Counted from the stretch's first letter, positions 9,687-62,510 are shown. The stretch: 64,000 nt of DNA from an uncultured Candidatus Micrarchaeota archaeon (GCA_963723105.1 CAVRPK010000001.1:80543-144542); one strand, 5' to 3'. A program made the numbers and translations. Notes: generated from the sequence alone by a model not told the origin.

Positions 9687-9690
9687 AAAA

Positions 9691-17147: not shown

Positions 17148-17236
17148 ATGACGATCTGGAATTTTCTTATTTATAAAGATATTTTATTCGAAACTTTTGA
17201 TATAAATAAGAAATTTAGAATCATTTTGTGATTCAA

Positions 17237-18469
17237 ATGAAAAAGATATTATTGGGTTTTCTTGTGCTAGGACTTTTCCTAGCAATTGGATGTATAGCAC
17301 AAGAAGAAAAGGCACCAAAGGAACAAATAGAAGTCGAAGTAGCGAACCTAAGCATTGTGCCTCAGGATGGACTAATTACAGTTACTGGAAATGAGAATCT
17401 CTCAGTTGTTAACATAAAGGCAAAGCAAAGCGCAACCAAATGGCATTTCCCCCTTGAAGAACATGTTGATGAATTCATTGATGTAGGACTGCATAGCGAT
17501 ACTTTCCTTGTCTTGGACAATAGTCATATCAAAATGCTTGATGAGAACGAATCAATTTGGCTGATTCCGATGGTCCAGAGCGGAAATTCAGCAGTTCTCT
17601 TTGATGCAGTATATGCAAAAGAAGTTTCTTGTGAGGACAAAAAAACAAACATTCTTGGAAAAGAATATGATATATCTAAATTTGAAGATGGATCTGGCTT
17701 TGAATTTGATGACAAATGGAAAATTGGCCTTGAGAAGGAAAATGATTGCACAAAGAGAATTGTGATTTATCTTGACGGTTACTTCTATGATTTGAAAGAT
17801 AATGAGCAGCTCAACTTATTTAGAAATGACAATACAATCTTGTTTAAGTTCAGTAACCTTGAGGATGAGCCTCTAGTAGAAGTAATAGGAACAAAACCAA
17901 CAGAAGAATTATCTGAAAACATCATTGTAAAAGATGAGAAAGGAATTTACTTGGAGTTTAGCCACCCAATCCCAAAAACATGTTATGGCTGTCTTAATGA
18001 TGGTTTGCTTGTCGAAGATGGTAAGAGGATTAAAACTGAGATTAATGGGGTTGAATGGATTGTCACACAACTGGATAATAACACCCTAGAAATAGGATTG
18101 GAAGAACAATTCAAAACACTAATGGAATGGGACAATACAACAACAATCCAAACTAGGAATAAGAGTTGGTATGTAAAAACGCATGAATGCCATGGAGATT
18201 TTTGTGATCAGATTTTCACGAACCTAGATGATGAGCAGGAAACAAACAGATTGCATAGTGGTGAAACGGAATTCATTGATGGTAAGTACGTGCATGTATG
18301 GAGTTCGCTAACATGGGGCCCTTTTCCATACCAGTCTACAGTTTCAGTATTGTCAAAACGTACCTCAATTAATTCAAGTGAAACGGAGTTTGTCTGGGAA
18401 GGAGAAAGTATCTCATCGATCTTCATCCCACAATCAAGCCCCATGTTTGAAAAACTATCCGGTCAATAA
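17237..18469 (+). CDS. Lipobox lipoprotein, unknown function
   Basis: MKKILLGFLVLGLFLAIGC (lipobox AIGC). The ~390-aa mature part has no recognised motif. The track start at 17228 is GTG. Confidence 0.65.
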   Translation: MKKILLGFLVLGLFLAIGCIAQEEKAPKEQIEVEVANLSIVPQDGLITVTGNENLSVVNIKAKQSATKWHFPLEEHVDEFIDVGLHSDTFLVLDNSHIKMLDENESIWLIPMVQSGNSAVLFDAVYAKEVSCEDKKTNILGKEYDISKFEDGSGFEFDDKWKIGLEKENDCTKRIVIYLDGYFYDLKDNEQLNLFRNDNTILFKFSNLEDEPLVEVIGTKPTEELSENIIVKDEKGIYLEFSHPIPKTCYGCLNDGLLVEDGKRIKTEINGVEWIVTQLDNNTLEIGLEEQFKTLMEWDNTTTIQTRNKSWYVKTHECHGDFCDQIFTNLDDEQETNRLHSGETEFIDGKYVHVWSSLTWGPFPYQSTVSVLSKRTSINSSETEFVWEGESISSIFIPQSSPMFEKLSGQ

Positions 18470-20682: not shown

Positions 20683-20744
20683 CACACGAATAGCCCGAAG
20701 ACAAATTTCGTTAGATTAAAAAACGAAGTGTGAGAAAGAGTCCC

Positions 20745-23453
20745 ATGGAAGCCCAGAAATCAAAAACGCCTCAAAGATCAATGGCAACGCAGAAAGTTGC
20801 CACATACTTATCATTGGCACAAAAAAACGAAGGTCTCTGGGGTGCAGTTTTAGTGTTCCTCGGAGCATTTTTCCTTCTTGCAACAGTTCCTTTTTATCCA
20901 GTATATATAGTTCCAATTCTTGCTGCAATTTGCGGTGCAATTGCATACAAGCTGCCACCTGCCGGATTGATCTTAGGAGCTGTTCTTGGATTTTTTGCAA
21001 TAATCTTCCAATCCGCTGTTTTGGGCTGGCTCTATATCCTTATACTTGTAATTGTTCTTTTTGAAGCGTTTGACAACTGGAAAGTAATATGTGTTTTAGA
21101 AATACTTGTGCTGGCACCATTTGCATTCAGTGGTTTCCCATTGATCGGATGGGTTACTATTGTTGGAATGGCTATGGGAGCCCTCTATTTCGGATCGCAT
21201 AAAAGCGTAATGATATCAGTTCCATCGGCATTCATGATCCTCTTATTATCGTCTCTTTGGCTTACTCAAAACACAGCATACATGCCTGTTAATATGAGTC
21301 TGTATGAACCTGGAAAGGCCGAGCTTCTATTGACAAAAGGAGCAGTTGGAGTTGGAGGAATTGTATCTGGGATTATAGGAGCTCTGGGAGATTTTCTGAG
21401 CTTGGATAACTTTGGAAGAATCTGGGAATCTCTTGGCTGGCTTGTTGGAAACATAATGATACTCGCATTCAGTGATTCCATGATACTGCAGCTGATTGGC
21501 TGGGCAGTTGCTCTATACATGCTCGGGTTGCTTCCAAGTAAAATCAAAAAAAGAGGGCAACTAATAGCATCATTCTCTCTGCTTATTGCAGTAGTTGTCC
21601 ACTTCATTGTTTTCGGGGCATATGGAACAGCATTTAGACTAGAATTTATTGGCGGAATTATTTTTGCAATAGCAGTTTTAGGTGGACTTGAACATTTTGG
21701 AATCAGCATAAGCAGAGAATCTCAAATCCAAAGAAAAGAGAAAATGAAAGCATATGGAAAATTTGGAATGAGTGATATGTCTCTTGGTGGATCAGAAAAA
21801 TCAATGGCTGATGTTGGTGGATATGAAGATGTTAAACAAGAGCTGAGAGATGCCATTATGTTGCCTCTTGAAAAGAAAGAAATTGCTTATACTTATGGGA
21901 TAAAACCTCCAGCAGGAATTCTTTTGTTCGGCCCACCTGGTACTGGTAAAACAATGCTTATGCGCGCTCTTGCAAAAGAACTAAAATATAATTTCATAGA
22001 AGTAAAATGTTCACAAATATTATCGCAATGGTATGGAGAAAGTGAGAAAAACATTGCCGAAGTTTTTGATAATGCACGCAAAAATGCACCAACAGTTCTG
22101 TTCTTTGATGAGATTGATGGAGTTGCCAAAAAAAGAAGTTCTGAAAGCCTTGATGAAGTTGGACCAAGAGTACTGAGCGAGCTTCTGCAGCAAATTGATG
22201 GTGCAAATAAAGCAAAGGGGACCGTAATGGTAGTTGGAGCAACCAACCTGCCAAATCAGCTTGATCCGGCATTACTTCGTCCTGGAAGACTTGATAAGAT
22301 CATATATATGCACCTTCCAGACCCAGATGCTAGAAGAGCAATTGCAAAAGTCCATCTTGGAAACCTCCCTGTTACTGAAGATATTGACATGGATGTAATA
22401 ATTAAGAAAACAGAAAGATTCTCAGGAGCAGACATGAAAAACATAGTAACAGAAGCAACGAGATTAGCTGCAAAAGAAGCAAGTGTCAAGGGAGTTATTA
22501 TTCCGCTCAATATGCAGCACTTCCTTCGAGTAGTTGCAAGTGTTAAGCCAAGTACTAGTCTTGCACAGCTTGACCTTTATGAACAGTTCAAAATGGACTA
22601 CGAAAGAAGAACAGGTGGAGTTGAGGACGAAAAAGAAGATAGCGATAAAGAAAGAATAGTTAAATGGAGCGATGTTGCTGGGCTTGATCAGGTTAAACGA
22701 GCTCTTCTTGAAGCAATACAGCTGCCTCTTCTGCATGAATCAGAGATGAAAGAGTTCAATGTAAAGCCAAGCAAAGGTATTCTTTTGTTCGGCCCTCCTG
22801 GTACTGGTAAAACTCTTATAGTAAGGGCTGCTGCATCAGAGCTCAAAGCATCATTCCAATCACTCAGCGGTGCTGAGATTATGAAAAAAGGATATACAAA
22901 AGCACTTGGAATAATTAGAGAAACATTCAATAGAGCCCGTGAAAATAGCCCAGCTATCATATTTGTTGATGAAATGGAAACATTCGCACCTGCAAGAGGT
23001 ATGGGTGGATCTTCTGAAATCATTGGGCAGTTCCTGACCGAGATGGATGGCATCAAAGGAAAAGGAGGGGTTGTAGTTATTGCTGCAACAAATAAGCCCA
23101 AACTTATGGATGCTGCAATTATGAGACCAGGGAGATTTGACAAGATATTCTATGTTCCTCCACCAGACCCTTCTGGAAGAGAAGCAATATTCAAAATTCA
23201 TCTTAGCAAGTTTGCAGGAAATGTAGATACGGCCATGTTAGCTAAAATAACTCCTGGCTTTAGTGGTGCTGATATTGCATCCATATGCCAATCTGCTAAA
23301 ATGGAAGCTTTAAGGGCCAAACTTGCCGGAAAACCAAGGGCTGTGAGTAATGAGATGATGATGCAGATCATTTCGCAAAGAAGACCTTCTATTACACAGC
23401 AGCTTCTTGATGAATATGCAAAGTTCATGGAAGCTTATGGTGAGAGAAGATAA
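20745..23453 (+). CDS. Membrane-embedded CDC48/VCP-type double AAA+ ATPase
   Basis: An N-terminal ~330 aa holds about 9-10 hydrophobic segments. Two AAA modules follow (GPPGTGKTMLMRALA / VLFFDEID and GPPGTGKTLIVRAAA / IIFVDEME), each with an SRH-like region. ATTAAAAAA lies ~26 nt upstream of the ATG at 20745. Confidence 0.85.
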   Translation: MEAQKSKTPQRSMATQKVATYLSLAQKNEGLWGAVLVFLGAFFLLATVPFYPVYIVPILAAICGAIAYKLPPAGLILGAVLGFFAIIFQSAVLGWLYILILVIVLFEAFDNWKVICVLEILVLAPFAFSGFPLIGWVTIVGMAMGALYFGSHKSVMISVPSAFMILLLSSLWLTQNTAYMPVNMSLYEPGKAELLLTKGAVGVGGIVSGIIGALGDFLSLDNFGRIWESLGWLVGNIMILAFSDSMILQLIGWAVALYMLGLLPSKIKKRGQLIASFSLLIAVVVHFIVFGAYGTAFRLEFIGGIIFAIAVLGGLEHFGISISRESQIQRKEKMKAYGKFGMSDMSLGGSEKSMADVGGYEDVKQELRDAIMLPLEKKEIAYTYGIKPPAGILLFGPPGTGKTMLMRALAKELKYNFIEVKCSQILSQWYGESEKNIAEVFDNARKNAPTVLFFDEIDGVAKKRSSESLDEVGPRVLSELLQQIDGANKAKGTVMVVGATNLPNQLDPALLRPGRLDKIIYMHLPDPDARRAIAKVHLGNLPVTEDIDMDVIIKKTERFSGADMKNIVTEATRLAAKEASVKGVIIPLNMQHFLRVVASVKPSTSLAQLDLYEQFKMDYERRTGGVEDEKEDSDKERIVKWSDVAGLDQVKRALLEAIQLPLLHESEMKEFNVKPSKGILLFGPPGTGKTLIVRAAASELKASFQSLSGAEIMKKGYTKALGIIRETFNRARENSPAIIFVDEMETFAPARGMGGSSEIIGQFLTEMDGIKGKGGVVVIAATNKPKLMDAAIMRPGRFDKIFYVPPPDPSGREAIFKIHLSKFAGNVDTAMLAKITPGFSGADIASICQSAKMEALRAKLAGKPRAVSNEMMMQIISQRRPSITQQLLDEYAKFMEAYGERR

Positions 23454-32820: not shown

Positions 32821-33270
32821 ATGAAAGGACAGGTTAGCACTGAACTCTTGGTTATTGTTGCTCTTGTACTACTGATTTTCATTCCGCTTCTTGTTCTTGT
32901 ATACTTCAAGGCGAATGAGGCAAATCAGCAGATTGCAGCATACCAGGCAGAACTTTCGGTTTCAAGAATTGCATCACTTGCAAATTCAGTTGGTAGTTTA
33001 GGAACCAACACATCAGTTACAACGGACATCTATGTACCGCCAAATACTATAGCTATGAATGTAACTAGCGTGGGGCGGGCAGGAGAGATATCACTGACTA
33101 TGAATAGTCCGCAAGGACCGACAACGCCGGTTGTTGAGATTATCAGATATCCACTAAGCAACCCAGGCACTCTTGCTGATTCAAGCTCAGCTGGCGGATG
33201 GATGAGACTTAGGATAAGCTCTGAATTTGTAAACAATGAGGCTTCAATAAAAATTGAAAAGGTCTCCTAA
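32821..33270 (+). CDS. Archaeal type IV pilin-like protein (class III signal peptide)
   Basis: MKGQVSTELLVIVALVLLIFIPLL: a short basic N-terminus, then G/Q and a hydrophobic helix. Confidence 0.7.
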   Translation: MKGQVSTELLVIVALVLLIFIPLLVLVYFKANEANQQIAAYQAELSVSRIASLANSVGSLGTNTSVTTDIYVPPNTIAMNVTSVGRAGEISLTMNSPQGPTTPVVEIIRYPLSNPGTLADSSSAGGWMRLRISSEFVNNEASIKIEKVS

Positions 33271-42209: not shown

Positions 42210-44522
42210 ATGCTTCAAAAGAGATTTGATAGAAGTATTGAGGAGAAATGGCAGCAGTACTGGCAGGAGAACAAAACTTACCAGTTCGATGAAGAGGACA
42301 ACACCAAAGAGATTTATTCTATTGATACCCCGCCGCCATTTACAAGTGGAGAGCTTCACATGGGCCATGTGCTCTCATACAGTTTCTTTGACTTTGCAGC
42401 AAGATACAAGAGAATGCGAGGATTCAATGTCTACTACCCGCAAGGATGGGATACACAAGGATTCCCAACCGAAGTCAAAGTTGAAAAAAAATACGGAAGA
42501 CTTCCTCCAGCAGAATTCAGGGAAAAATGCGTGGAATGGACACATGACATGATTGCAAGAATGAAAAAGCAAATGAATGAAATGGGATTTTCTGCTGACT
42601 GGAGATATGAATATAGGACAATGGATCCAGACTATCACAAAAAAGTCCAGATGTCATTAATCCAAATGTACGGGGACAAACTGGTCTACAGAGATAAATA
42701 TCCGGTTTACTGGTGCACCAGATGCGGCTCTGCAGTTGCAAAAGCAGAACTGGATGATGAAGAAAAAAACGGAACACTTAATCACATTAAATTCACTGGT
42801 CCTGGTGGAGAAGAACTTATTATTGCAACAACAAGGCCAGAAATGCTCGCTGCATGCGGCGCAGTATTATACAATCCAGAAGATGAGAGATACAAAAACC
42901 TCAGTGGAAAAAAGATCACCACACCTCTTGGAGCCGAAGTTCCAGCATTTGCAGACAAGGAAGTGGACAAAGAATTTGGATCCGGACTTGTTATGGTTTG
43001 TACTTTTGGAGATAAGATGGATGTTGTATGGATGCATAGATACAAACTTCCGCTGGTTCAGGTTATTGATGCATATGGAAAGATGATCAATGCTGGAGAG
43101 CTTGATGGACTAAAGATAGTTGATGCTAAGAAAAAGATGCTTGAAATTCTCGGGGATAAAGTAGTCAAAAAAGAAGACTTGAAACAAACAGTTAAGGTCC
43201 ATGACAGATGCAAAAGACCAGTTGAACTGATTCCTTCTCTTCAGTGGTTTGCAGACATTAGATCAACTGCAAAAGCAGTTAAAGAAATGGCACATGAGAT
43301 CAAATGGATTCCTGAATTTGGAATTACCTATCTTATTGACTGGGTTGAAGGCGCTGAATGGGACTGGGTAATTTCAAGACAACGGGTTTTCGGAACACCA
43401 CTTCCATTTTACATTTGCGGATGCGGAAAGACAGCTCCAGCAGATAAGCTTCCATTTTATCCGGAAAAAGCAGGGACAAAAAAATGCGAATGCGGAGAAG
43501 AAATGCAGCCAGAAACAAGCACATGTGATTGCTGGGTTGATTCAAGCATTAGTCCACTGATAATTGCTGGTTGGCCAGATAAGGAAAAGATGAAGAAATT
43601 TTATCCAGTTTCACTAAGGCCTCAGGGAGTTGAAATTGTCAGGACATGGGCATTTTATACGATATTCAGAAGCGGAGTTGCGCTAACAAAACAAAAGCCA
43701 TTTGAGACAGTTCTCTTAAATGGAAATGTACTTGCCACCGACGGCAAAAAAATGAGCAAGAGCCTTGGAAATATTATTTCTCCAGCAGAACTTCAAAAGG
43801 AATATCCTGTTGATGCAATAAGACAATGGGCAGCTCTAAGCGGGGCTATGGCAAAGGACAGGCCATTTAGCTATGAAGATATCAAATACTCCAAAAGCTT
43901 CCTTGCAAAACTATGGAACGCAGCAAAATTTGTAGAAACTCTTAGAAATGCAGAAGAAACAGAGCTCACAACAATTGACAAATGGATAATAGGAAGACTA
44001 AATACTACGATAAAAAAAGCAACAGAAGCAATGGAGAAATATGAATATCATACAACAATTGGTGCTATTCAGAAATTCTTCTGGAATGACTTTTGCGATG
44101 ACTATCTTGAGTATGTGAAGCACAGAGTATACAATGATGAGCCGTCAAAAAATGCAGCTCTCTACTGCCTCAATAAGGTGATTATAGAGACTCTGAAGAT
44201 ACTTGCTCCAATCACTCCACATATTAGTGAAGAAGTATACCAGATTTACAATCCAGGAAAAAGCATCCAGCATGAAAGCTGGCCAGAAGCTGGAGAGGAA
44301 TACTTGGAAGAAGTTGAAAAAGTATCTACACTCAATGATGTTGTTACACTAATTAGGCAGCACAAGTCAAACAACAAACTAGCTCAAAATGCAGAGCTTG
44401 AGAAAGTTGTTGTTACAACTCCAAAAAAGATGGATGAAGAATTGATACTAGAGCTTGGAAAAATCAGCAAGATAAAGAATGTAGAAAATAAGGAAGGAGC
44501 ATTGTCAATTACTGTGGAATGA
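42210..44522 (+). CDS. valS: Valyl-tRNA synthetase
   Basis: DTPPPFTSGELHMGHV (HIGH), ARYKRMRGFNVYYPQGWDTQGFPTE and KMSKSLGN. The track start at 42201 is TTG, and the first ATG is at 42210. Confidence 0.9.
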   Translation: MLQKRFDRSIEEKWQQYWQENKTYQFDEEDNTKEIYSIDTPPPFTSGELHMGHVLSYSFFDFAARYKRMRGFNVYYPQGWDTQGFPTEVKVEKKYGRLPPAEFREKCVEWTHDMIARMKKQMNEMGFSADWRYEYRTMDPDYHKKVQMSLIQMYGDKLVYRDKYPVYWCTRCGSAVAKAELDDEEKNGTLNHIKFTGPGGEELIIATTRPEMLAACGAVLYNPEDERYKNLSGKKITTPLGAEVPAFADKEVDKEFGSGLVMVCTFGDKMDVVWMHRYKLPLVQVIDAYGKMINAGELDGLKIVDAKKKMLEILGDKVVKKEDLKQTVKVHDRCKRPVELIPSLQWFADIRSTAKAVKEMAHEIKWIPEFGITYLIDWVEGAEWDWVISRQRVFGTPLPFYICGCGKTAPADKLPFYPEKAGTKKCECGEEMQPETSTCDCWVDSSISPLIIAGWPDKEKMKKFYPVSLRPQGVEIVRTWAFYTIFRSGVALTKQKPFETVLLNGNVLATDGKKMSKSLGNIISPAELQKEYPVDAIRQWAALSGAMAKDRPFSYEDIKYSKSFLAKLWNAAKFVETLRNAEETELTTIDKWIIGRLNTTIKKATEAMEKYEYHTTIGAIQKFFWNDFCDDYLEYVKHRVYNDEPSKNAALYCLNKVIIETLKILAPITPHISEEVYQIYNPGKSIQHESWPEAGEEYLEEVEKVSTLNDVVTLIRQHKSNNKLAQNAELEKVVVTTPKKMDEELILELGKISKIKNVENKEGALSITVE

Positions 44523-45000
44523 TCTTTCCGACAACTCTTCCGCTAATTATATGTTCTGAAGTACTGCAAGTAGGTCCAAGTTCCGAAGCGCAGGAAACAT
44601 ATGTAATATTACCAGTAAATTTCTTTACATCGCCTTCTTTTACTTCAGGACCACTAAGAGTTGCCTCGAAAGGAGGGCTTGTATGCTCTCCACTATCAAG
44701 CTCAACATTTGTTGCAAAACCAGAAAAGCTTTGAAGTCCGTCAGTAGTTTGAATATTTATTTCAATGATTTTGACCTTATACGGATACCCATTGAAAATA
44801 TCCATACCAAGTTTTGTTGAGCCTCCATCATTGTAAATAGCAAAATTACAGGGGAAATTGTTTCCAAATGAACATTCTTCTGCAACAAGATAACTTGGCG
44901 ATAATAATCCACTAGTTAAAAGCACTCCAACGACGATTACCAAGGCAAGAAGTGCCCAGCCATAGGTCATCAAATATTCTACTGCTGCTTGTCCCTTCAT
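44509..45000 (-). CDS. Archaeal type IV pilin-like protein (class III signal peptide)
   Basis: MKGQAAVEYLMTYGWALLALVIVVGVLL from the ATG at 45000. The 3' end overlaps the valS stop region by 14 nt. Confidence 0.65.
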   Translation of the reverse strand: MKGQAAVEYLMTYGWALLALVIVVGVLLTSGLLSPSYLVAEECSFGNNFPCNFAIYNDGGSTKLGMDIFNGYPYKVKIIEINIQTTDGLQSFSGFATNVELDSGEHTSPPFEATLSGPEVKEGDVKKFTGNITYVSCASELGPTCSTSEHIISGRVVGKIIPQ

Positions 45001-45024
45001 AGTTAACATACCCCCATGCATCAA

Positions 45025-49771: not shown

Positions 49772-50734
49772 ATGATGGAAAAGACAGATATATTGCCATG
49801 GACAGAGAAATACAGACCTAAAAATCTTGATGAAGTTGCAGGGCAGAGCGAAACAGTAACTAGTCTCAAAGCGTTTGTAAACGCAAAAAACATGCCGAAT
49901 ATGCTTTTTGCAGGTCCTCCAGGAGTTGGAAAAACAACATGTTCACTAGCCCTTGCAAAGGAACTTTTTGGCGATTCAATTGCAGGAAATTTCTTAGAAC
50001 TCAATGCAAGCGATGAACGTGGAATTGATGTTGTACGAGGCCGAATCAAAGATTTTGCAAGATCTGTTTCACTTGGAGAAGCCCCATTCAAACTGATTTT
50101 CTTGGATGAGGGAGATGCTCTAACTTCTGATGCCCAGCAGGCACTTAGAAGAACTATGGAATCAAACTCGAGAGTAACCAGATTTATTATTTCAGCAAAT
50201 TATTCTTCAAAAATTATTGAGCCAATTCAAAGTAGGTGTGCAGTATTCAGGTTCATGCCACTTCAAGAAGAAGAAACAAAATCAGCACTTGAAAAGGTTG
50301 TCAAACTGGAAGGACTGAAATTAGATGAAAGTGCATATTCTGCAATTTACTATGTTTCGGAAGGAGATATGAGAAAAGCGTTGAATATTCTGCAGGGGTG
50401 TGCCATGCATTCCAAAAACATTAATGAAAAGCTCGTTCATAAGATCAGCTCAAGAGCAATGCCCAAAGAAGTTAGAACAATGATCGAATGTGCTCTCAAA
50501 GGAAACTTCAATGATGCTAGGACAAACCTAGATACACTGATTATTTCATATGGGCTTAGTGGTGAAGACATACTGACTCAAATATACCGCGAGGTGCCAA
50601 AGCTTGAGATTGAAGAGAAAAAACGCATGAAACTCATTGAGATAATAGGCGAATATAACTTCAGGTTAGTACAAGGTGCAAACGAACGAATTCAGCTCGA
50701 GGCTCTTTTAGCGCAGTTTGTAAGCGTGGAATAG
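49772..50734 (+). CDS. rfcS: Replication factor C small subunit
   Basis: PWTEKYRPKNLDEVAGQ, GPPGVGKTT, LDEGDALT and PIQSRCAVFRF (SRC motif). Confidence 0.9.
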   Translation: MMEKTDILPWTEKYRPKNLDEVAGQSETVTSLKAFVNAKNMPNMLFAGPPGVGKTTCSLALAKELFGDSIAGNFLELNASDERGIDVVRGRIKDFARSVSLGEAPFKLIFLDEGDALTSDAQQALRRTMESNSRVTRFIISANYSSKIIEPIQSRCAVFRFMPLQEEETKSALEKVVKLEGLKLDESAYSAIYYVSEGDMRKALNILQGCAMHSKNINEKLVHKISSRAMPKEVRTMIECALKGNFNDARTNLDTLIISYGLSGEDILTQIYREVPKLEIEEKKRMKLIEIIGEYNFRLVQGANERIQLEALLAQFVSVE

Positions 50735-51343
50735 ATGCTAAAAATATTTTTTCTTGTTTTTCTGATTAATATTGCAGGTGCTGCAGTAGTTGCTCCGACT
50801 ATTTATGAGCAGCGAGATCTCGGAACCCCCTCACTTGAAGAATTCACATATTCTATTAGCGTGGATTGTACTGCTGCATCCATCAACCTGTATGTACTTG
50901 ATGAAGAGTATAAACAAGTTGAAGATGCCAACACTTATCTAAAATACATAGATTTTGCACAGCCTCTTATTTCATCTGGAGAAACAGACAAAGCAGGATA
51001 TATTTTGCACAAGCTTCCAGGAAATGTAAAATTGATGAGAGGATTTTTTGTTCTGGTTATTCAAAAAAGCGGATTTAGAAACAAGGAAATTCATTTTGAT
51101 ATTGGAAGGTGTTACAATGATGAAGTGCTTCCAAATAAACCAGAGCAAGAAAAGCCAGAGCCTGTAGTTCCGGAAGAGCCAGAAGTTGAAGAAACAGATG
51201 TACCTGATGTTATAGAACCGGAAAACGAAACTGAAGAAATAGATAACACAACAAAAACAGAAGAAGAGGAAGAAACAGCTCCAATTGAATTGTGTCCAGG
51301 AATACTAATTCTGCTCATGGTTTATAAATTCTTCAGAGGATGA
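50735..51343 (+). CDS. Secreted beta-sandwich-like protein with acidic P/E linker and Cys-containing C-terminal anchor signal (paralog 1)
   Basis: A signal peptide, a Cys-bracketed ~100-aa domain and a PE-rich linker, ending ELCPGILILLMVYKFFRG. The gene starts immediately after the rfcS stop. Confidence 0.7.
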   Translation: MLKIFFLVFLINIAGAAVVAPTIYEQRDLGTPSLEEFTYSISVDCTAASINLYVLDEEYKQVEDANTYLKYIDFAQPLISSGETDKAGYILHKLPGNVKLMRGFFVLVIQKSGFRNKEIHFDIGRCYNDEVLPNKPEQEKPEPVVPEEPEVEETDVPDVIEPENETEEIDNTTKTEEEEETAPIELCPGILILLMVYKFFRG

Positions 51344-51350
51344 ATGATTC

Positions 51351-52016
51351 ATGAAATACCTCATATTCCTATTACCCATATTATTACTTGGGTGTGTAAG
51401 CGATACTGGAGAAATAGTTGAAAATACAACTGAAAACGTAACAGAAAATATCACTGAAAATGAAACTGTTGAACCAGAATGCGTCTGTACTCTTGAATTT
51501 GATCCAGTTTGTGGAGAAGACGAAGTAACATACCAGAATAATTGCAGTGCAGAATGTGCTAATGTAAAAATCCAATACAAAGGTAGATGCCAGGTAGAAG
51601 GAGCTGAAATTGAGGACCAAAGCTGCGTTGATAGTGATGGTGGAATTGAGATTCATGAAAAGGGTACAGTTACTGCTTTTGGAGCAACATTTGTAGATAA
51701 CTGCTCAGATACACTTGTCAAGGAATATTATTGTGAAGAGCGAGAAGCAAAAAGTTCTTTGCATGCATGTCCAGATGATTTCAAATGCGTGGATGGAGAA
51801 TGCGTTCGTGGAAAAATAGAATGCACTGATACAGATGGCGGAAATGATATTTATGAGGCAGGAACAGTAACAATCCAAGGTCTGATAAAAGGAATATACC
51901 TGGACAAATGCATTGACCACACACTTTTGAAAGAGTATTACTGTGATAATGATGAGCTTACAATAAATGAAGTAGAATGCGAAATCGAGTGCAAACAAGC
52001 CAGATGCTTGCAGTAG
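51351..52016 (+). CDS. Lipobox lipoprotein: NxT sequon stalk + Kazal-type inhibitor domain + two 6-Cys repeats
   Basis: Lipobox LLLGC and a sequon run NTTENVTENITENET. The Kazal core (nt 51477-51590) is CVCTLEFDPVCGEDEVTYQNNCSAEC...C. Two CxDSDGG...EYYC...C..G.C repeats follow. Confidence 0.75.
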   Translation: MKYLIFLLPILLLGCVSDTGEIVENTTENVTENITENETVEPECVCTLEFDPVCGEDEVTYQNNCSAECANVKIQYKGRCQVEGAEIEDQSCVDSDGGIEIHEKGTVTAFGATFVDNCSDTLVKEYYCEEREAKSSLHACPDDFKCVDGECVRGKIECTDTDGGNDIYEAGTVTIQGLIKGIYLDKCIDHTLLKEYYCDNDELTINEVECEIECKQARCLQ

Positions 52017-52050
52017 TAACATTAAAAACAAATAATGTCAAAGAATTGTT

Positions 52051-52677
52051 ATGGGATTGTTTGTCATTGCACTGATTCTTGCCAGCATAAATATGGCATT
52101 TACAGTAAATCCGGATTTTATAGGAGTTCAGGATACAGGAAGCAAAAGCCTTCCAACAATGGATGTTGAGCTTAGCATTGATTGTGAAACCAAAGACCTG
52201 AGCGTAACAGCAACTTCTGAGGATGAACCTATTGATGGAGCATCCACTGTGATGTTTTATACTGATTATGGATACCAACCACTTCCAAATCCAGGAAAAA
52301 CGGGCAGCGATGGATCAGTAACTATGAGTGTTCCAGGAACAATAAACTTTCTCACAGGACTTTTCATATTAAGAGTTGACCATCAGGCATATCAGAGCAG
52401 AGAGATTGAATTTGCATATGAAAAATGCTTTGAAGATCCTCCACCTGTAGTAGAACCAGAGCCAATAGTTGAGGAGGAACCTGAAGAAGAGATAACACCT
52501 CCGGAAGAGACAGAAGAAACACTTCCTCCGGAAACTACCGAGCCGGAAATTAATGAAAGCGAACCGGAAGTGATTGTTGAACCGGTAGAAGTTCCTGATG
52601 AAACAGAAGAAAGCACTGCAGCATGTCCGATAGGAATTCTTTTGCTGTCAATGCTTGCAATTAGAGTGATAAGATGA
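52051..52677 (+). CDS. Secreted beta-sandwich-like protein with P/E linker and Cys-containing C-terminal anchor signal (paralog 2)
   Basis: Same architecture as 50735..51343, ending STAACPIGILLLSMLAIRVIR. Confidence 0.7.
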   Translation: MGLFVIALILASINMAFTVNPDFIGVQDTGSKSLPTMDVELSIDCETKDLSVTATSEDEPIDGASTVMFYTDYGYQPLPNPGKTGSDGSVTMSVPGTINFLTGLFILRVDHQAYQSREIEFAYEKCFEDPPPVVEPEPIVEEEPEEEITPPEETEETLPPETTEPEINESEPEVIVEPVEVPDETEESTAACPIGILLLSMLAIRVIR

Positions 52678-53273
52678 AAGTTTTACTTGCATTATTATTG
52701 ATTTTTGGAATGAGCTATGCAGCCATGCTCATGACATTCGATGTGGAAATAGAAAATACATGTGATGAGGAAACTGAAGTAACGCGCGTTACCGTTACTA
52801 GCGGCAGTAGTAACCCAGTAGAAAACGCATATGTGAAAGTTGAAGACATTGATCCATGGAAGCAAAAAACAAGTGGAATAGTAGATAGTGATGGAGTATT
52901 TGAATTCGAAGGATGTGGAGATACTTGGAATGTTACTGTAAGCTATGGTGGATATGAAACAACAATAGAAACTGTTGAACTTGGTAGTTGCGGCAGTTGT
53001 GTTGCTGTGCCAGAGCCCGAGCCTGAAGAAAATGAAACAGAAGCAGATCCACCTCCAGTTGAACCTCCAGAAGAAGAGACAACAACTCCTCCAGTAGTAG
53101 ATCCTCCAGAAGTAACCAAGCCAACAACACCCCCAGTACCAGAACTATATGAAACAGATGATGAAGAACCTGAAGAAGAAACAATAAATGAGAAAAAGCC
53201 ACTTCCATGTTGCGCATCAACTACAATTCTTTTGGGCTTAGTTGGACTTTTTGCAATTAGGTTGAAAGCATGA
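52674..53273 (+). CDS. Secreted beta-sandwich-like protein with P/E/T linker and Cys-containing C-terminal anchor signal (paralog 3)
   Basis: Same architecture, ending KPLPCCASTTILLGLVGLFAIRLKA. A 4-nt overlap joins it to the previous gene. Confidence 0.7.
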   Translation: MKVLLALLLIFGMSYAAMLMTFDVEIENTCDEETEVTRVTVTSGSSNPVENAYVKVEDIDPWKQKTSGIVDSDGVFEFEGCGDTWNVTVSYGGYETTIETVELGSCGSCVAVPEPEPEENETEADPPPVEPPEEETTTPPVVDPPEVTKPTTPPVPELYETDDEEPEEETINEKKPLPCCASTTILLGLVGLFAIRLKA

Positions 53274-54667
53274 GAAGCGAAGAGGATTTCATAGGAAAGA
53301 TAGAAGTTCCAGATAATGCATATTATGGGATTTTCACAGTTAGGGCAGATAAAAATTTCAAATTAAGCAGCAGCAAAGTACACATGGAATTGATCAGGGC
53401 AGTTATCTTGATCAAAAAATGTGCAGCACTTGCTAATATGGAACTTCAAAGATTGCCAAAAAAAGAAGGAGATGCAATAGTCCAGGCAGCAGAAGAAGCA
53501 CTCGCAGGGAAATTTGATGAAGAATTTATCCTCGATGCATTTCAAGCCGGGGCAGGAACACCACTTCACATGAATGTAAATGAAGTTCTAGCAAACAGAG
53601 CAGAAGAAATTCTTGGCGGAGAACTTGGAAAGTACAGGATAATTCATCCGAACAATCATGTGAATATGTCGCAGAGTTCTAACAACGTAGTTCCTTCAGC
53701 AGTAAGAATTGCTGCAATAAAACTGTCAAAACCTTTGATTGAAGAAGCAAAAGCATTGCAAAAATCTTTTGAGAAAAAAGAAGCGAAATATTCTAAAACA
53801 ATAAAAATTGGAAGAACCCATCTCCAGGATGCTGTTCCAATTACTTATGGCCAGACTTTTGCAGCATGGGCAAGTGCTCTTGAAAAAGATATCAAATCAC
53901 TTGAATCTTCAGCAAAAGGACTGCGAGAGCTTGGAATTGGAGGAACTGCCGTAGGCTCAGGAATAACAGCACACCCAAAATTCAGAGAAAAGATAATTGA
54001 ATTTTTGAACAAAGACGTAAATGTGGTCATGGCAAAAGATGCAATTGAATTGACCCAAAATATGAATGATCTTCTGGAATTTTCTGCATCAATGAGAAGA
54101 TATGCTTCAACGATTTCAAGAATTGCAAATGATCTTCGCCTTCTTTCTTCAGGACCAAAGGCAGCAATTGCAGAAGTTATATTGCCAGAGGTTGAACCTG
54201 GCTCATCCATTATGCCTGGAAAAGTAAATCCATCTGTTCCAGAAGCAGTAAACATGGTCAGCTTTCAGGTAGTTGCAAATGACCTGGCAGTAATGCTTGG
54301 AGCGCAATCAGGACAGCTAGAGCTGAATTTCTGCGCGCCGCTGATTGCACACAATATTATCCAAAGCGAGGAACTTCTTACTAATTGCAACAAAATGTTC
54401 GCAGAATGCATTGATGGAACTAAAATTGACGAGAAGAAAACCAAAGAAAATTTCGACAAAACATTTGGCTATGCAACTGCACTCAACCCATATTTAGGAT
54501 ATTCTCGGGTTTCAAAGCTTGTCAGCGAAGCGTACCGTATGGGGGTAACACTTAAAGAGCTTGTTATTCAAAAAGGAATAATGAGCAATGAGGATCTTGA
54601 GCAGATTATCGCCACTGCAAATGGCCCATCTGAGATTGATCCAAAAATCAAAGAGCGAATAAAATGA
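53270..54667 (+). CDS. Class II fumarate hydratase / aspartate ammonia-lyase family lyase
   Basis: GSSIMPGKVNPSVPEAV (signature GSSxMPxKxN), HPNNHVNMSQSSNN and GRTHLQDAVP. Motif details are mixed between FumC-like and AspA-like, so the substrate is not assigned. Confidence 0.85.
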   Translation: MRSEEDFIGKIEVPDNAYYGIFTVRADKNFKLSSSKVHMELIRAVILIKKCAALANMELQRLPKKEGDAIVQAAEEALAGKFDEEFILDAFQAGAGTPLHMNVNEVLANRAEEILGGELGKYRIIHPNNHVNMSQSSNNVVPSAVRIAAIKLSKPLIEEAKALQKSFEKKEAKYSKTIKIGRTHLQDAVPITYGQTFAAWASALEKDIKSLESSAKGLRELGIGGTAVGSGITAHPKFREKIIEFLNKDVNVVMAKDAIELTQNMNDLLEFSASMRRYASTISRIANDLRLLSSGPKAAIAEVILPEVEPGSSIMPGKVNPSVPEAVNMVSFQVVANDLAVMLGAQSGQLELNFCAPLIAHNIIQSEELLTNCNKMFAECIDGTKIDEKKTKENFDKTFGYATALNPYLGYSRVSKLVSEAYRMGVTLKELVIQKGIMSNEDLEQIIATANGPSEIDPKIKERIK

Positions 54668-55389
54668 CAGATGTAAAGGAAAGTGAAGGATTCAAGAGCC
54701 TCTCCGAGCTTTTTGTCAAATTCAAAGAGTTTCATTTTGATCTTGCGAGAAAGGTTGATTATCCAAGCATTCCAAAATGGATAGATTTTGCTGATAATAA
54801 AGTTGAAAAAGTTCTTGATGAAGAAAAAAGCATAGTGGACAACATCAAAGATATGTATATCATTTACATTCTTTGGACAGCTCTTTCAATTATTGGTCTA
54901 TGGTATATGTGGGCAATATATGGAGCAATATTTGGAACGATATTCCTAGCAGTGTTCCTAAATCCACTTGCAGTAATAGTCGTGGCAATTATCATCATCA
55001 TGCTTTTATTATCTCCAGTAATTGGATTATTGTGGAACAGCTCGCTCTACTATATAGTTGCCAGAGCTTTAGGTGGAAAAGGATCTTTTAGAAAAACAAT
55101 GTCAATACTGGTAAATTCAACTGGTGCCTCCATGATCCTCTCTGCAGGAGTACTATTATCATATGCAATAATCATAGGATTTTTCATATCTCCTTTGATA
55201 TATGCAGTATTGTTCTATGTGGTTTATTTGCAATACAAGGGAATCAAACATGTGCATAAACTCAGCAGAAACAGATCAATCGGGGTAATTGTAGGAAGTA
55301 TTATCGTGAGCTTTGCGCTTCAATTCGTGTTGATAATTGGAGCATATCTTGGCTTCATGGCATTTATGATGGGTGTAATATATGTCTGA
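54664..55389 (+). CDS. Multi-pass membrane protein, Yip1/DUF1282-like (tandem paralog 1)
   Basis: 241 aa with about 5 TM segments. It shares YxVAxxLGGKG and YLxYxxxKxVHKLSxxR blocks with the next gene. Confidence 0.5.
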   Translation: MTDVKESEGFKSLSELFVKFKEFHFDLARKVDYPSIPKWIDFADNKVEKVLDEEKSIVDNIKDMYIIYILWTALSIIGLWYMWAIYGAIFGTIFLAVFLNPLAVIVVAIIIIMLLLSPVIGLLWNSSLYYIVARALGGKGSFRKTMSILVNSTGASMILSAGVLLSYAIIIGFFISPLIYAVLFYVVYLQYKGIKHVHKLSRNRSIGVIVGSIIVSFALQFVLIIGAYLGFMAFMMGVIYV

Positions 55390-56137
55390 TCTCGATAAAT
55401 ATGTGAACAAATATACGGAATATGTTGACAAGGTAGCAGAATTCATCCCATACAAAGGTACAAAAGTTTGGAGGGAATTTTTCTTTAATCCAACCAAAAC
55501 AGTCACTGGAAACATTGGCGGAATTGGAAATCGTGTAAAGGATCTTTATGTGATGCAGGTAATTGGACTTGTAATTGGTCTGCTTGCATTGATCCCATAC
55601 GTTCTCATCTATGGAGCCACATTAGTATCAAATCCGATTGCAGGAGGTTTTGGAATAGGACTTATAGTTGGTTTGATGGTACTATTCTTCATCCTAGGAC
55701 CAATTATCTCACTCCTGTATTCAATGATTGAATATGCAGTAGCAAAGATTCTTGGTGGAAAGGCAGAAGCCACAGCCCATGTCAATGCATCGATCCTGCC
55801 AACTCTGGCAACATTCTTGATCGTGCTTCCGCTCAGTATTTTAATTATTCCAATAAGATGGCTGGCCATTATCCCGCTAGTAAGCTGCTGCGTTGCAATA
55901 ATTACCCTTCCAGTATCACTCGCAACTATGTTTGTGAATCTTTATGGGATATACCTCAAATATCTTGCATTTAAAGAGGTTCATAAGCTCACAGCCATAA
56001 GAACAATTGCAGTAATATTTGCTCCAATAATAATTCTCATTGGACTAATTATTGCAGCATACTTCGTTTTCGCTGCAGCAATTATTGGTGGTGGGCTTGG
56101 GAGTTCTCTTTTGCAATCCGGAGCATTAACTGGATAA
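55382..56137 (+). CDS. Multi-pass membrane protein, Yip1/DUF1282-like (tandem paralog 2)
   Basis: 251 aa, overlapping the previous gene by 8 nt and sharing conserved blocks with it. Confidence 0.5.
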   Translation: MSDLDKYVNKYTEYVDKVAEFIPYKGTKVWREFFFNPTKTVTGNIGGIGNRVKDLYVMQVIGLVIGLLALIPYVLIYGATLVSNPIAGGFGIGLIVGLMVLFFILGPIISLLYSMIEYAVAKILGGKAEATAHVNASILPTLATFLIVLPLSILIIPIRWLAIIPLVSCCVAIITLPVSLATMFVNLYGIYLKYLAFKEVHKLTAIRTIAVIFAPIIILIGLIIAAYFVFAAAIIGGGLGSSLLQSGALTG

Positions 56138-58781: not shown

Positions 58782-59537
58782 GTGAGGGGTTTGATAGAAA
58801 GTCTCAAAAGATCATTTAATGTAGTTTCAAAACAGCCATTTTTATTTGTCTGGAGTTCGTTATTATACGTATTCATGTTTCTTTTGTTTAGTTTGGCTGC
58901 AATAGGATTGTTTTTGTTGTATTTCCTGTTCTTGTCCATTTTCGGACAGGAGTTAAACTTTGAATCAATTGCAACAATGGGAGTTATTGGAATAATTGGG
59001 GTTCTGGTTGTTTTCTTCATAAATGGATTGAATATGGCACTTTCAATGGCATATCACTCTGGGATTAAACGAGAAAAAATAAGCCTTACAAAATTCTATT
59101 CTTATGCAGTTGACAGAGCACCAACATCTCTTGGGATTTTACTTATCCGAGAACTGCTATGGCTCCTTCTGGTTGGTCCATTTATTGCTCTTTACATAGT
59201 ATATCTTGAGCCATACCAGTACATGGATGCACTTCTTGCAGTATATGCAATTTTCACGACTTTCATCATACATATGCTATTTACACCATCATTCATCCTA
59301 GCAGGATCATTTGGAACAAGCATATACAGCTCAATGAGATTGGGCTTTGAATTTCTAAGAAAAAGACATGTGTTCTTCATAGGACAGTATATATTGTTTG
59401 CATTTGTATGGCTTATGAACTTCATACCATTCATACAAATTGCAACGATATTCTTCGCCTACCCATTATCATACACGTCAATGATATTCATGATCAAAAA
59501 TGCAGTGAAAATACCTACAGATGGAGATGACGACTAA
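58782..59537 (+). CDS. Multi-pass membrane protein, unknown family
   Basis: 251 aa with about 6 TM segments. It has a GTG start and no upstream in-frame ATG. TTTAAATAATTT lies ~27 nt upstream. Confidence 0.5.
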   Translation: MRGLIESLKRSFNVVSKQPFLFVWSSLLYVFMFLLFSLAAIGLFLLYFLFLSIFGQELNFESIATMGVIGIIGVLVVFFINGLNMALSMAYHSGIKREKISLTKFYSYAVDRAPTSLGILLIRELLWLLLVGPFIALYIVYLEPYQYMDALLAVYAIFTTFIIHMLFTPSFILAGSFGTSIYSSMRLGFEFLRKRHVFFIGQYILFAFVWLMNFIPFIQIATIFFAYPLSYTSMIFMIKNAVKIPTDGDDD

Positions 59538-60366: not shown

Positions 60367-60873
60367 ATGGAAGAAAAAAAAGGACTCGCCTCAAGAGGCG
60401 TTCCATCATCAGAATCCATTTACCTGCCACGCCATGACAGTCCTGAGCTTAGAACTTTCCAAGATAAGCATGAGGGAATCACCAGAAATGCATGGTCACT
60501 TGAGGAAGTTGCTAATTTCGTATTTTCAAAAAAATACCAGCCAAAATATTTTGAGATTGCACTTGGATTTTTGACACTTTTAAGTAAAGAGATCAGCATT
60601 GGTGGAGAAGAGATTTCAGAATATGTAAAAAGCAATGGCATCTCCAAAGCAACCTTCTACAATAGGGTTTTGCCAAGACTCAAACGCGTTGGTATGGTAA
60701 AAGTTGAGCGAGAGACACTAGTTAATATTGAGAGTAAAAGAAAATACAGACCAATGAGGATATCTCTAAGCAAAACATTTGGAAACTACTTTATGAAAAT
60801 TGGAGATTCCTGGCTTGCAATAGTAGATGATGCAAGAAGTAAAAAAGAAAAAAAAGAACAGACTAAACTCTAG
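60367..60873 (+). CDS. Winged-HTH DNA-binding protein
   Basis: EEISEYVKSNGISKATFYNRVLPRLKRVGMVKVER and a K/E-rich tail. Confidence 0.55.
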   Translation: MEEKKGLASRGVPSSESIYLPRHDSPELRTFQDKHEGITRNAWSLEEVANFVFSKKYQPKYFEIALGFLTLLSKEISIGGEEISEYVKSNGISKATFYNRVLPRLKRVGMVKVERETLVNIESKRKYRPMRISLSKTFGNYFMKIGDSWLAIVDDARSKKEKKEQTKL

Positions 60874-62510
60874 TCTAGTTTGATAAGCATCCGATATAGG
60901 CCACCATCATGGAAGTACAGGTCCACCTGATAATCCTGGCCGTTATATTCGAATTTATCTCCATCTTCTAGCCTATAGTCATCATTGTCAAGTTCAAAGC
61001 GGATTTCTTCATCTCCAAGATCTATATCCACCAGATCAGCATATTCACCAAGTATAAAGAATGAATAGCCATCAAGGTTAAGACCTGAGGATTCAGTATC
61101 CAGATAAGGATGGAAGTACATGTCAAATTCTTCATATACCACTTCATCGTCTGGACAGGATGAACCAATCCAAATTAGCTCTTCACCTTCTGCTGAATAG
61201 ACCTCGATTACTTTGAAATCATCCAGAATGATGTCAGCGTAATCATCTACGTCATTAACAGTGTCAACTTCAACATCACCAGTGTTTTCTCCGCAAAGAT
61301 CATTTTCACTGACTCCTTCGTCCAGATCTTCTTCACATTCCTCGTCATTGTCGTCGAACTTTTCATAGTCCTGGAAAACGCGGACAGTTGCCTGAGTTCC
61401 TGAAACACTGACAAGCCTCATGATAAGATCATCATCAAGCTCTACAATATCTCCGACATACATTCTGAGGGTCTCTGAACTGTAATCTTCAATATCATAT
61501 ATTGAATCTCTGATGTCAATTTGATCAATGTCCTGAGTACAATCAAGCTCCTGGCATTCGCCAAATTTACATTCATAGCCAAAGCCACATGCTATTTTTT
61601 CAGTATGATATGCATCTCCAGAACAATAATACTCAAGAACAGAGGTATCGCTGTAGCATGAGTCTTCATATTCATGATCCGGAGTTTTGAGAGTTCCTTT
61701 AGCATATTTGTCCTTTCCGCCATCAGAATCAGAACAAGGAGCTATTTCAACGCATGCTCCATCAACACATTCGAAATCAGAAGCACATGGTATTTTTTTA
61801 CTACTAATCTTATCTCCTGAACAATAGTACTCAGTTACTGCAGTAACCCCAGAACATTTATCATCAGATGATTGATCACCTTTAGTAACAGTTCCAGCTT
61901 CAAGCTCATCTTCACCATCATCAGAATCAGAGCAAGGATATTCTACACAAGCACCATCAACACATTGTTGACCAAGACTGCAGTCAACTGTTTTTGAAGT
62001 AACTACGCTGCCATCGCAATAATATTCTGTTACAGCATCAGAGGATTTGCATTCATCAGTGTTGGCCTCTCCAGACGAACTGACGGTTCCTTTTTCAAGG
62101 GGTTTGATTCCGCCATCAGAATCATCGCATGGGGAAACAATACACTTTCCAGATTCACATGAATAGCCAAGTGGGCATGGGATCTGCATTGATGAGATCG
62201 AGTTGCCTTCACAATAATATTCAGTTACTGTAAGCTTGTCTTTACAGGAATCTGTATTTGAAGAGCCTTCTGCAGATGTACGTCCAACAGCAAGAGTATC
62301 CTTTCCGCCATCAGAATCATCGCAAACCTGAGCTCTGCAAGGACCATCGTAATCAACCTTAACATTTGCTTTTTCAGCAAGACATTGATTATTATAGGTC
62401 TTTCCGTCTACACCGCAGACATAGTCCTTGGTATCTGGACAGTTTGTTCCACCTAAACAGCCGGCAGATAAAACCATCAATCCGATAAATAGAATAAATA
62501 GTAATTTCAT
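60870..62510 (-). CDS. Lipobox lipoprotein: Kazal-like domain + four tandem 65-aa six-Cys repeats + highly acidic C-terminal domain
   Basis: Lipobox LSAGC. The Kazal-like core is NCPDTKDYVCGVDGKTYNNQCLAEKANVKVDYDGPC. Four C(D/S)DSDGG...C...(T/L)EYYC...C...C..G.C repeats follow, then a D/E-rich 220-aa tail. Confidence 0.75.
   Translation of the reverse strand: MKLLFILFIGLMVLSAGCLGGTNCPDTKDYVCGVDGKTYNNQCLAEKANVKVDYDGPCRAQVCDDSDGGKDTLAVGRTSAEGSSNTDSCKDKLTVTEYYCEGNSISSMQIPCPLGYSCESGKCIVSPCDDSDGGIKPLEKGTVSSSGEANTDECKSSDAVTEYYCDGSVVTSKTVDCSLGQQCVDGACVEYPCSDSDDGEDELEAGTVTKGDQSSDDKCSGVTAVTEYYCSGDKISSKKIPCASDFECVDGACVEIAPCSDSDGGKDKYAKGTLKTPDHEYEDSCYSDTSVLEYYCSGDAYHTEKIACGFGYECKFGECQELDCTQDIDQIDIRDSIYDIEDYSSETLRMYVGDIVELDDDLIMRLVSVSGTQATVRVFQDYEKFDDNDEECEEDLDEGVSENDLCGENTGDVEVDTVNDVDDYADIILDDFKVIEVYSAEGEELIWIGSSCPDDEVVYEEFDMYFHPYLDTESSGLNLDGYSFFILGEYADLVDIDLGDEEIRFELDNDDYRLEDGDKFEYNGQDYQVDLYFHDGGLYRMLIKLD
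61542..62324 (-). repeat. Four tandem protein-level repeats (65-66 aa each, 6 Cys each)
   Basis: These are residues 63-323 of the ORF, counted by hand. The repeats have diverged at the DNA level. The same repeat type occurs twice in 51351..52016. Confidence 0.7.

Follow-up and report, generated by a model that had tools for sequence, protein, structure and literature searches.

An invariant cysteine opens the short C-terminal tails of a family of small stalked surface proteins in Candidatus Micrarchaeota: a possible uncatalogued sorting signal

A 64 kb stretch of DNA from an uncultured Candidatus Micrarchaeota archaeon (GCA_963723105.1, CAVRPK010000001.1:80543-144542; hereafter the window, in whose coordinates positions are given) contains a cluster of four consecutive genes, A to D (50735-53273), three of which encode predicted surface proteins that end in a Cys residue, a short hydrophobic helix and a few final residues. 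The question raised by this locus is what such a tail does: is it an ordinary membrane anchor, or a signal through which the protein is sorted and attached to a lipid? For DPANN archaea, which are attached to the cells of a host, surface proteins are thought to be central to this contact. Micrarchaeota, in particular, reportedly have reduced genomes and are host-dependent.

The first-pass annotation of this DNA described one architecture common to three of the four genes, and this description holds: there are four open reading frames in the cluster, and A, C and D are built from the same four parts, i.e. a signal peptide, a small beta-sandwich domain, a stalk and a Cys-first tail. The data directly support the view that A, C and D belong to one Micrarchaeota family of exported proteins, in which a small beta-sandwich is carried on a sequon-rich Pro/Glu/Thr stalk that ends in a short C-terminal membrane tail. 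The family has a conserved architecture and is spread across Micrarchaeota. None of the three signal peptides contains a lipobox ([LVI][ASTVI][GAS]-Cys); the Cys of interest is the C-terminal one, ahead of the helix.

The most conspicuous property of the tails is the conservation of this residue. Family members were gathered with hidden Markov models (HMMs) of two alignments, two sequences flagged by a script being checked by eye, and the tail-opening Cys was found in every one of 118 distinct sequences, of which 79 are C-type, 24 A-type and 15 D-type. A chance origin of the residue is rejected on this conservation, and so is the expectation that would have spoken for plain anchors, namely that no Cys is conserved across the orthologs. 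The stalk next to it is hypervariable, while the Cys itself is invariant. In the C-type tails Pro is at +1 in 63 of the 78 sequences scored and at +2 in 12 more, position +3 is mostly Gly or Ala (the forms counted include CPLG 25 times, CPIG 7 times and CLPA 4 times), and the helix abuts the Cys without a spacer. The stretch of uncharged residues behind the Cys is 12 long in the median (range 12-17), and the distance from Cys to the C-terminus is exactly 17 residues in 52 of the 78 sequences. The D-type tails have an uncharged run of about 15 residues, and 12 of the 15 place their second Cys 20 residues from the C-terminus; the motif K-[KR]-P-L-P-C-C, from which the helix follows, is invariant among the 13 homologs aligned. 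Both C- and D-type tails carry Lys or Arg among the last 2-4 residues. The A-type tails keep the Cys at the equivalent spot in all orthologs, and the rest of the tail is looser; in gene A of the window 12 uncharged residues lie between Glu185 and Lys198, 10 of them after the Cys. A Cys in every sequence, an abutting helix and, in the C- and D-types, terminal Lys/Arg amount to the design of a tripartite Cys-containing signal.

The neighbourhood of the Cys is also characteristic. The 30 residues ahead of it are rich in Pro, Glu, Thr and Ala, Ala occupies position -1 in 43 of the 78 C-type tails, and the mean number of N-x-S/T sequons in the preceding 70 residues is 3.8 for the C-type, 6.0 for the A-type and 2.0 for the D-type. 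Glycosylation of the stalk is probable, and the context looks typical of sorting-signal substrates. Proteins A and C have exactly three cysteines each, C45, C126 and the tail residue (C187 in A, C192 in C); those of D are C30, C81, C106, C109 and the tail pair C179-C180. The bracket cysteines of the sandwich presumably form one disulfide, and with an odd count of three the tail Cys of A and C is left without a partner within its own chain.

We propose, as the most economical reading, that the tail is an uncatalogued Cys-containing C-terminal anchoring or sorting signal to which a lipid is attached, with the helix removed or not; we put the probability of this reading at roughly 0.45. Lipidation and cleavage, which we infer by analogy with known signals, might proceed as follows. 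The invariant Cys would be placed at the outer face of the membrane, where it would be modified with an isoprenoid or archaeol lipid in thioether linkage. The short helix, with about 12 uncharged residues in C and 10 in A, and the basic end would serve as a transient stop-transfer and recognition element, and an intramembrane protease might then remove the helix. A, C and D would, together with the predicted lipobox lipoprotein B, make up a surface assembly that is anchored by lipids and kept throughout the lineage. The uncharged run of the tails is short for a helix that spans the bilayer stably, and is comparable to the 20-residue CGP-CTERM signal of Thermococcales.

Several observations weigh against the proposal. 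The A-type tails are much less uniform than the others, the uncharged run varying from 10 to 20 residues and the cytoplasmic end from 2 to 26; some of them lack the terminal basic cluster, and some resemble ordinary transmembrane anchors. The D motif (KKPLPCC) differs from the motif of A and C (C-P-x-G or C-[LIM]-P-[AG]), so that one enzyme would need a broad specificity. The Cys that the first-pass annotation described ahead of the helix is borne out for all three proteins; the tail of D has a motif of its own. All three tails of the window pass a crude transmembrane threshold (Kyte-Doolittle averaging). Genuine sorting signals tend to occur on many unrelated proteins, and here the tail is confined to one family with a single further carrier, as judged by a tail HMM and a looser regular expression run over the open reading frames of the window together with some 0.5 Mb of related loci. 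Finally, the Pfam and NCBIfam scans detected no archaeosortase, CPBP protease or rhomboid in the window, in agreement with the earlier statement that no processing enzyme is visible there, and a screen for CPBP motifs (EExxxR, FxxxH, HxxxN/D) among 74 multi-pass open reading frames from all loci (about 0.5 Mb) gave no convincing candidate.

The main rival explanation is one in which the tails are plain, permanent type I transmembrane anchors that are neither cleaved nor lipidated, and the membrane-side Cys takes part in an interchain disulfide. The partners could be A and C in a heterodimer, two D chains linked through their two cysteines, or the Cys-rich lipoprotein B. The hydropathy of the tails, the anchor-like variation in length and cytoplasmic extension of the A-type, the near restriction to one family and the lack of a nearby sorting enzyme in the window scans all agree with this explanation. 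Moreover, A and C, each with one unpaired Cys, are encoded together in almost every genome, D has two such residues, and in the AlphaFold2 model of C a helix begins directly after the Cys. We consider a plain anchor a serious alternative, though less probable than the lipid-anchoring reading. The uncharged run is only 10-12 residues in A and C of the window, and an anchor does not require that a run of about 12 residues and a Cys-to-end distance of 17 be fixed in two thirds of the C-type tails. It also leaves the conserved Pro and Gly beside the Cys unexplained; one genome in which a lone family member lacks an A partner still has the Cys, and a small protein outside the family ends in the same tail. 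An unpaired Cys at the start of the helix, the accompanying Pro and Gly, the short run and, in the C- and D-types, the fixed length strain the simple anchor and fit recognition at the membrane interface followed by attachment of a lipid.

The unrelated carrier deserves a closer description. It is a Cys-rich secreted protein of 154 residues from another Micrarchaeota MAG (metagenome-assembled genome; locus L015, 810-1274, minus strand), unrelated to A, C and D, which ends in ...SFCCLPAFLLGMIGFATIRI, with 17 residues from the second Cys to the end. The gene is called at NCBI, and a JGI assembly has a called relative from the same 90%-identity cluster. Evidence for a modular tail is so far limited to this protein. 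Within the window the tail pattern is restricted to 3 of about 60 genes, i.e. A, C and D. The sample in which modularity could be assessed comprised about 450 genes, mostly from one syntenic neighbourhood, and is therefore not a genome-wide test. Larger searches added little. A 21-position tail profile run with HMMER against 1.84 billion representative sequences gave nothing at E<=1e-3, its maximum of about 33 bits being unable to reach significance in such a collection, and the tail alignment found nothing at E<=10 in a word-indexed search of 5.8 billion proteins, which has no statistical power for such a query. A metagenome scan with the pattern ACP[LIV]G[IVF][LIV][LM]L[ST], also without statistical power, returned 61 stretches, 3 of which were confirmed, all of them close orthologs of C.

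As regards candidate enzymes, PF02517 and NF040590 had no match among the membrane proteins of the window, and the multi-pass and unannotated proteins in it gave only Yip1, M50, an AAA ATPase and a 7-helix protein of no known family in the Pfam and NCBIfam scans. The M50 peptidase (Peptidase_M50, site-2 protease family; 381 residues, 2170-3315, plus strand) is the sole intramembrane protease of the window. The 7-helix protein (58782-59537, plus strand) has 251 residues with about 7 transmembrane helices and matched nothing in Pfam, NCBIfam or the PDB sequences. Its synteny is conserved in about 21 Micrarchaeota loci, where it follows an archaeal-type phosphoenolpyruvate (PEP) carboxylase gene; its invariant residues include S52, N84, H196, W24 and W210, with a near-invariant FTP motif and H164. 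This pattern suggests an enzyme or a transporter. We rejected it as the processing enzyme, since by our reading the invariant residues do not fit the catalytic patterns of CPBP proteases, archaeosortases or rhomboids; a single-sequence AlphaFold2 model was too poor for a fold search (predicted local distance difference test score, pLDDT, of 58). The window also encodes an ATPase of 907 residues (20730-23453, plus strand, GTG start) with two AAA domains of the CDC48-like kind and an unusual architecture: where such proteins usually have a soluble N-domain, its first ~330 residues form a membrane domain that passes the bilayer several times, with about 8-10 hydrophobic segments.

A comparison with the catalogued C-terminal signals was made at the level of sequence models. 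An NCBIfam scan with the whole proteins and the isolated tails of A, C and D matched no model at E<=10. The cutoffs of the two relevant models are 24.5 bits for TIGR04126 (PGF_CTERM) and 21 bits for TIGR04288 (CGP-CTERM), and synthetic controls in the same search scored 52.9 bits for a PGF tail and 36.2 bits for a CGP tail; in the run in which these controls scored, neither a native A/C-type tail nor the D tail gave anything at E<=10. The family-consensus tail and tails in which CP was edited to CGP likewise stayed far under the cutoffs of the CGP, PGF, MYXO, Synerg, Heimdall, GPS and GVDTG CTERM models, the edited ones reaching at most 11.6 bits with TIGR04288. None of the 118 sequences has Cys-Gly-Pro at the tail Cys; P-x-G, P-G or [LIM]-P-[AG] stand there instead. 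Ordinary PGF-CTERM and membership in CGP-CTERM are thus both rejected by a test with a working control. The first-pass annotation had named the former as an outcome that would speak against a variant signal, and had mentioned a Cys-Gly-Pro sorting domain of Thermococcales, which is real and corresponds to TIGR04288 (bioRxiv 10.1101/2023.06.07.544157).

The same results bear on the idea that the tails are divergent archaeosortase substrates, i.e. a PGF-CTERM-like P-[GA]-[FLI] element with an additional Cys, cleaved and lipid-modified by an ArtA-type enzyme encoded elsewhere. The idea has some appeal, as many tails contain a Pro, then Gly or Ala within one or two residues and next a hydrophobic residue (CMPGFLL, CLPAFLL, CPAGFIL, CPGAFIL), and the stalk ahead of them is prone to glycosylation, as in ArtA substrates. 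However, TIGR04126 recognises no native tail although it readily detects the synthetic one, the commonest form is C-P-L-G rather than P-G-F, and no archaeosortase is present in the window. Furthermore, an invariant Cys is the hallmark of the class of signals linked to CPBP proteases, and not of archaeosortase signals (bioRxiv 10.1101/2023.06.07.544157). We regard this explanation as quite improbable. Still less probable, in our opinion, is that the Cys is kept for some other role, such as metal binding, a redox-active thiol at the membrane surface, or S-acylation with the helix retained. Such a role would be compatible with a residue that is invariant although the window scans found no processing machinery. 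It has no specific support, and the location of the Cys exactly at the helix start, its Pro/Gly neighbours and the fixed length of the tail point instead to recognition at the membrane interface.

It is instructive to look at the lipoproteins of the same window. Gene B has a lipobox-like LLLG-C15 followed by 18 further cysteines, and lipobox-like starts (...L-x-G-C) were seen in at least five proteins (9123-9686, 9673-10167, 17228-18469, 51351-52016 and 60870-62510), three of which carry Cys-rich modules of eukaryotic type: Kazal domains in 51351-52016 and 60870-62510, and a PSI/plexin repeat in 9123-9686. Judging from these sequences, the set points to a lipoprotein-rich surface in this DPANN genome. 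Two other small proteins (32821-33270, plus strand, and 44509-45024, minus strand) have N-termini, MKGQVSTELLVIVALVLLIF... and ...MKGQAAVEYLMTYGWAL..., that resemble class III (type IV pilin-like) signals, and neither has a Pfam match. AliA, the transferase that attaches a thioether-linked archaeol to the lipobox Cys, has been reported in DPANN (PMC12462473). We count this, and the lipobox proteins of the window, in favour of the proposed lipid anchoring. More speculatively, the tail might be a mirror-image lipobox, in which the C-terminal Cys is thioether-lipidated by the AliA-type machinery of N-terminal lipoproteins and the helix is clipped, the universally conserved A/C proteins forming with B a membrane stalk that tethers the surface layer (S-layer) or mediates host contact. 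This specific version is distinctly unlikely; if true, it would represent a new, sortase-independent route to C-terminal lipid anchoring. Its S-layer part is speculative, and was prompted only by the remark, in the one study of a Micrarchaeota S-layer, that the S-layer protein has no anchoring motif and that a second, membrane-anchored stalk protein is perhaps needed (bioRxiv 10.1101/2021.04.28.441871).

The relationship between the three proteins could be resolved in part. A and C are, by sequence, clear paralogs (BLASTP, 27% identity, E 1e-17), and A and C domains are 27-40% identical across the family. BLASTP of D against A and against C gave no match, and an alignment of a 13-member D profile with a 38-member A/C profile by hhalign had a probability of 98.4% (E 5.6e-15) with the bracket cysteines in register; we therefore claim the kinship of D at the profile level only. 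The description of A, C and D as three paralogs accordingly applies in the ordinary sense to A and C, with D as a more distant, profile-level relative. The guess, made by eye, of a CarboxypepD_reg/prealbumin-like fold is reasonable and falls short of proof. D scores 31.3 bits against PF13620 (CarboxypepD_reg), just short of the cutoff of 32.3, and several of its homologs have precomputed hits to this model; A and C have no Pfam match. In the AlphaFold2 model of C (mean pLDDT 83) residues 22-127 form a beta-sandwich, followed by a stalk of low confidence and a terminal helix. The best PDB matches of the model in Foldseek are FN3 domains and transthyretin, the latter with a root-mean-square deviation of about 3.2 A over about 78 columns, and the E values are only about 1e-2.

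The coordinates of the cluster and its neighbours are collected in Table 1. The genes form a tight array of eight, from rfcS through the second Yip1 gene, as seen from their overlapping and abutting junctions. The stop codon of rfcS (TAG, 50732-50734) directly abuts the ATG of gene A, which bears out the adjacency noted earlier; the C/D and D/lyase junctions are ATGA overlaps, and the lyase/Yip1 and Yip1/Yip1 genes overlap as well.

Table 1. Genes of the array around the Cys-first tails, and the tails themselves, in window coordinates
Feature	Position	Strand	Description	Match or basis
rfcS	49772..50734	+	replication factor C small subunit; opens the tight same-strand array	NF001679, 471 bits
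Gene A (202 aa)	50735..51343	+	signal peptide; beta-sandwich bracketed by Cys45-Cys126; acidic Pro/Glu/Thr stalk; Cys-first tail	family HMM, 191.9 bits
Tail of A	51293..51340	+	C187-PGILILLMVY-KFFRG; 16 residues from Cys to end	
Gene B (221 aa)	51351..52016	+	predicted lipoprotein; Kazal-like domain; Cys-rich repeats; without C-terminal tail	Kazal_1, 29.8 bits; Kazal_2, 28.5 bits
Gene C (208 aa)	52051..52677	+	signal peptide; transthyretin-like beta-sandwich (22-127, Cys45-Cys126); disordered stalk (~130-190); Cys-first tail	
Tail of C	52624..52674	+	C192-PIGILLLSMLAI-RVIR; 17 residues from Cys to end	AlphaFold2 helix 193-207
Gene D (199 aa)	52674..53273	+	signal peptide; CarboxypepD_reg-like beta-sandwich; Pro/Glu/Thr stalk; di-Cys tail	
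Tail of D	53193..53270	+	K-K-P-L-P-C179-C180-ASTTILLGLVGLFAI-RLKA	alignment of D family
Lyase	53270..54667	+	aspartate ammonia-lyase / class II fumarase-like lyase; conserved downstream neighbour of D	NF008909, 567.8 bits
Two Yip1-domain membrane paralogs	54664-55389 and 55382-56137	+	end of the overlapping array	PF04893, 32.5 and 20.7 bits

The family has a well-defined phyletic distribution. Database searches gave 57 homologs of C and 13 of D, all from MAGs and assigned to Candidatus Micrarchaeota wherever the source is named; in the case of D only the closer relatives have it. A scan of GTDB species genomes retrieved 26 loci, nearly all titled Micrarchaeota or Micrarchaeia (the titles include two 'Candidatus ainarchaeum sp.', one Bilamarchaeum and two 'archaeon'). 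In these 26 loci and in further contigs the gene order is kept: a KaiC-like gene on the minus strand, then rfcS, A, B (1-3 copies), C, optionally D, the lyase and Yip1-type genes. The core array rfcS-A-B-C-(D)-lyase was found in more than 26 Micrarchaeota genomes, with B between A and C in most loci. Copies of the Yip1 paralogs accompany the majority of the related loci, though not every one, and in some cases lie on the opposite strand.

The first-pass annotation had called rfcS an odd partner for surface proteins. Odd it is, but the pairing is conserved across Micrarchaeota loci and is not peculiar to this window, the gap between rfcS and A being -4 to +5 nt in nearly all of them. The most reduced arrangement is that of L032 (GCA_976012905.1, CDMARG010000031.1), whose single family member has the tail EICSSLFLLILGTFFSMRLL and retains the Cys without an A partner; it is placed directly between rfcS and the PEP carboxylase gene, with none of the B, D, lyase and Yip1 genes in between, and a GGDEF-domain gene lies 10 kb upstream. 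As the adjacency is kept even there, the rfcS pairing is not a local accident. We offer no explanation for it beyond co-transcription in a compact genome.

Annotation appears to be lacking for the family as well as for its tail: the named copies are called 'hypothetical protein', except for one relative of D that is named for its domain only. To our knowledge, the only archaeal member of the Cys-containing C-terminal sorting signals so far is the CGP-CTERM of Thermococcales. If the tail is processed, this class would extend to DPANN, with a new signature in a new lineage rather than as something categorically new, and the sequences collected here would provide a seed alignment for an annotation model as well as a phylogenetic profile with which the enzyme could be sought. 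Even without processing, the family remains a lineage marker that has no annotation. In either case, a small, stalked, lineage-conserved family with an invariant Cys-first tail is a concrete target for proteomics.

It is useful to compare the general features of the Micrarchaeota proteins with those of known systems. The globular part is nearest to CarboxypepD_reg/transthyretin-like domains: D approaches the PF13620 cutoff, the A/C domain is homologous to that of D at the profile level, and the A/C model superposes on transthyretin. The family differs from these domains in having a Cys bracket of its own, as well as FYTDYGYQ and REIEFxYxKC motifs. As to the tail, archaeal lipobox lipoproteins, in which AliA and AliB attach a thioether-linked archaeol to an N-terminal Cys, have, like the tail, a Cys at the outward end of a membrane-spanning helix, in many cases with small residues ahead of it, and the organism encodes many lipobox proteins, including the neighbour B. 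The arrangement is nevertheless a mirror image, since in the tail the helix follows the Cys, any cleavage would be on its C-terminal side, and there is no [LVI][ASTVI][GAS]C context behind a hydrophobic region.

PGF-CTERM, the substrate signal of archaeosortase A, is likewise a C-terminal tripartite signal found on glycosylated archaeal surface proteins, with a Pro-Gly element at the start of the helix. The difference is that PGF-CTERM has no invariant Cys, its model does not match the tails, and the Micrarchaeota hydrophobic segment is shorter. The bacterial signals of the MYXO-CTERM type, on the other hand, are tripartite and do contain an invariant Cys, frequently with a second one, as in D and in the L015 protein. 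Cleavage of MYXO-CTERM by the CPBP myxosortase MrtX has been shown experimentally to depend on the conserved Cys (PMC11980579), which gives our proposal a precedent; in the sequence of steps put forward for these signals, the Cys is first lipidated and the chain is then cleaved distal to it (PMC11980579; bioRxiv 10.1101/2023.06.07.544157). These signals are longer, have other signatures and their models do not match the tails; MrtX cleavage is experimental there, whereas the present proposal is a reading of sequences.

The closest system in design appears to be CGP-CTERM, a 20-residue signal of Thermococcales with an invariant Cys-Gly-Pro, called by its authors the shortest such signal and predicted to be processed by the CPBP protease MrtA (bioRxiv 10.1101/2023.06.07.544157). 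The differences lie firstly in the order of residues, C-P-x-G or C-[LIM]-P-[AG] instead of C-G-P; TIGR04288 does not match the native tails. Secondly, the tails belong to DPANN Micrarchaeota and not to Thermococcales, and no MrtA-like gene was seen in the window or the related loci. Thirdly, CGP-CTERM occurs on many unrelated large proteins (mean 583 residues), while the Micrarchaeota tail is almost limited to one family of proteins of about 200 residues. Both are archaeal and very short (20 residues in CGP-CTERM, 17-21 in the Micrarchaeota tails), in both the Cys opens the signature, with Pro and Gly within three residues of it, and in both a Leu-rich helix follows without a spacer and leads to a basic end. 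The stalks are alike as well: the region just ahead of CGP-CTERM and of the sorting domains of archaeosortase substrates is rich in Thr and Ser and is read as glycosylated (Haft; bioRxiv 10.1101/2023.06.07.544157), and a stalk predicted to be glycosylated precedes the Cys-first tail of the Micrarchaeota proteins.

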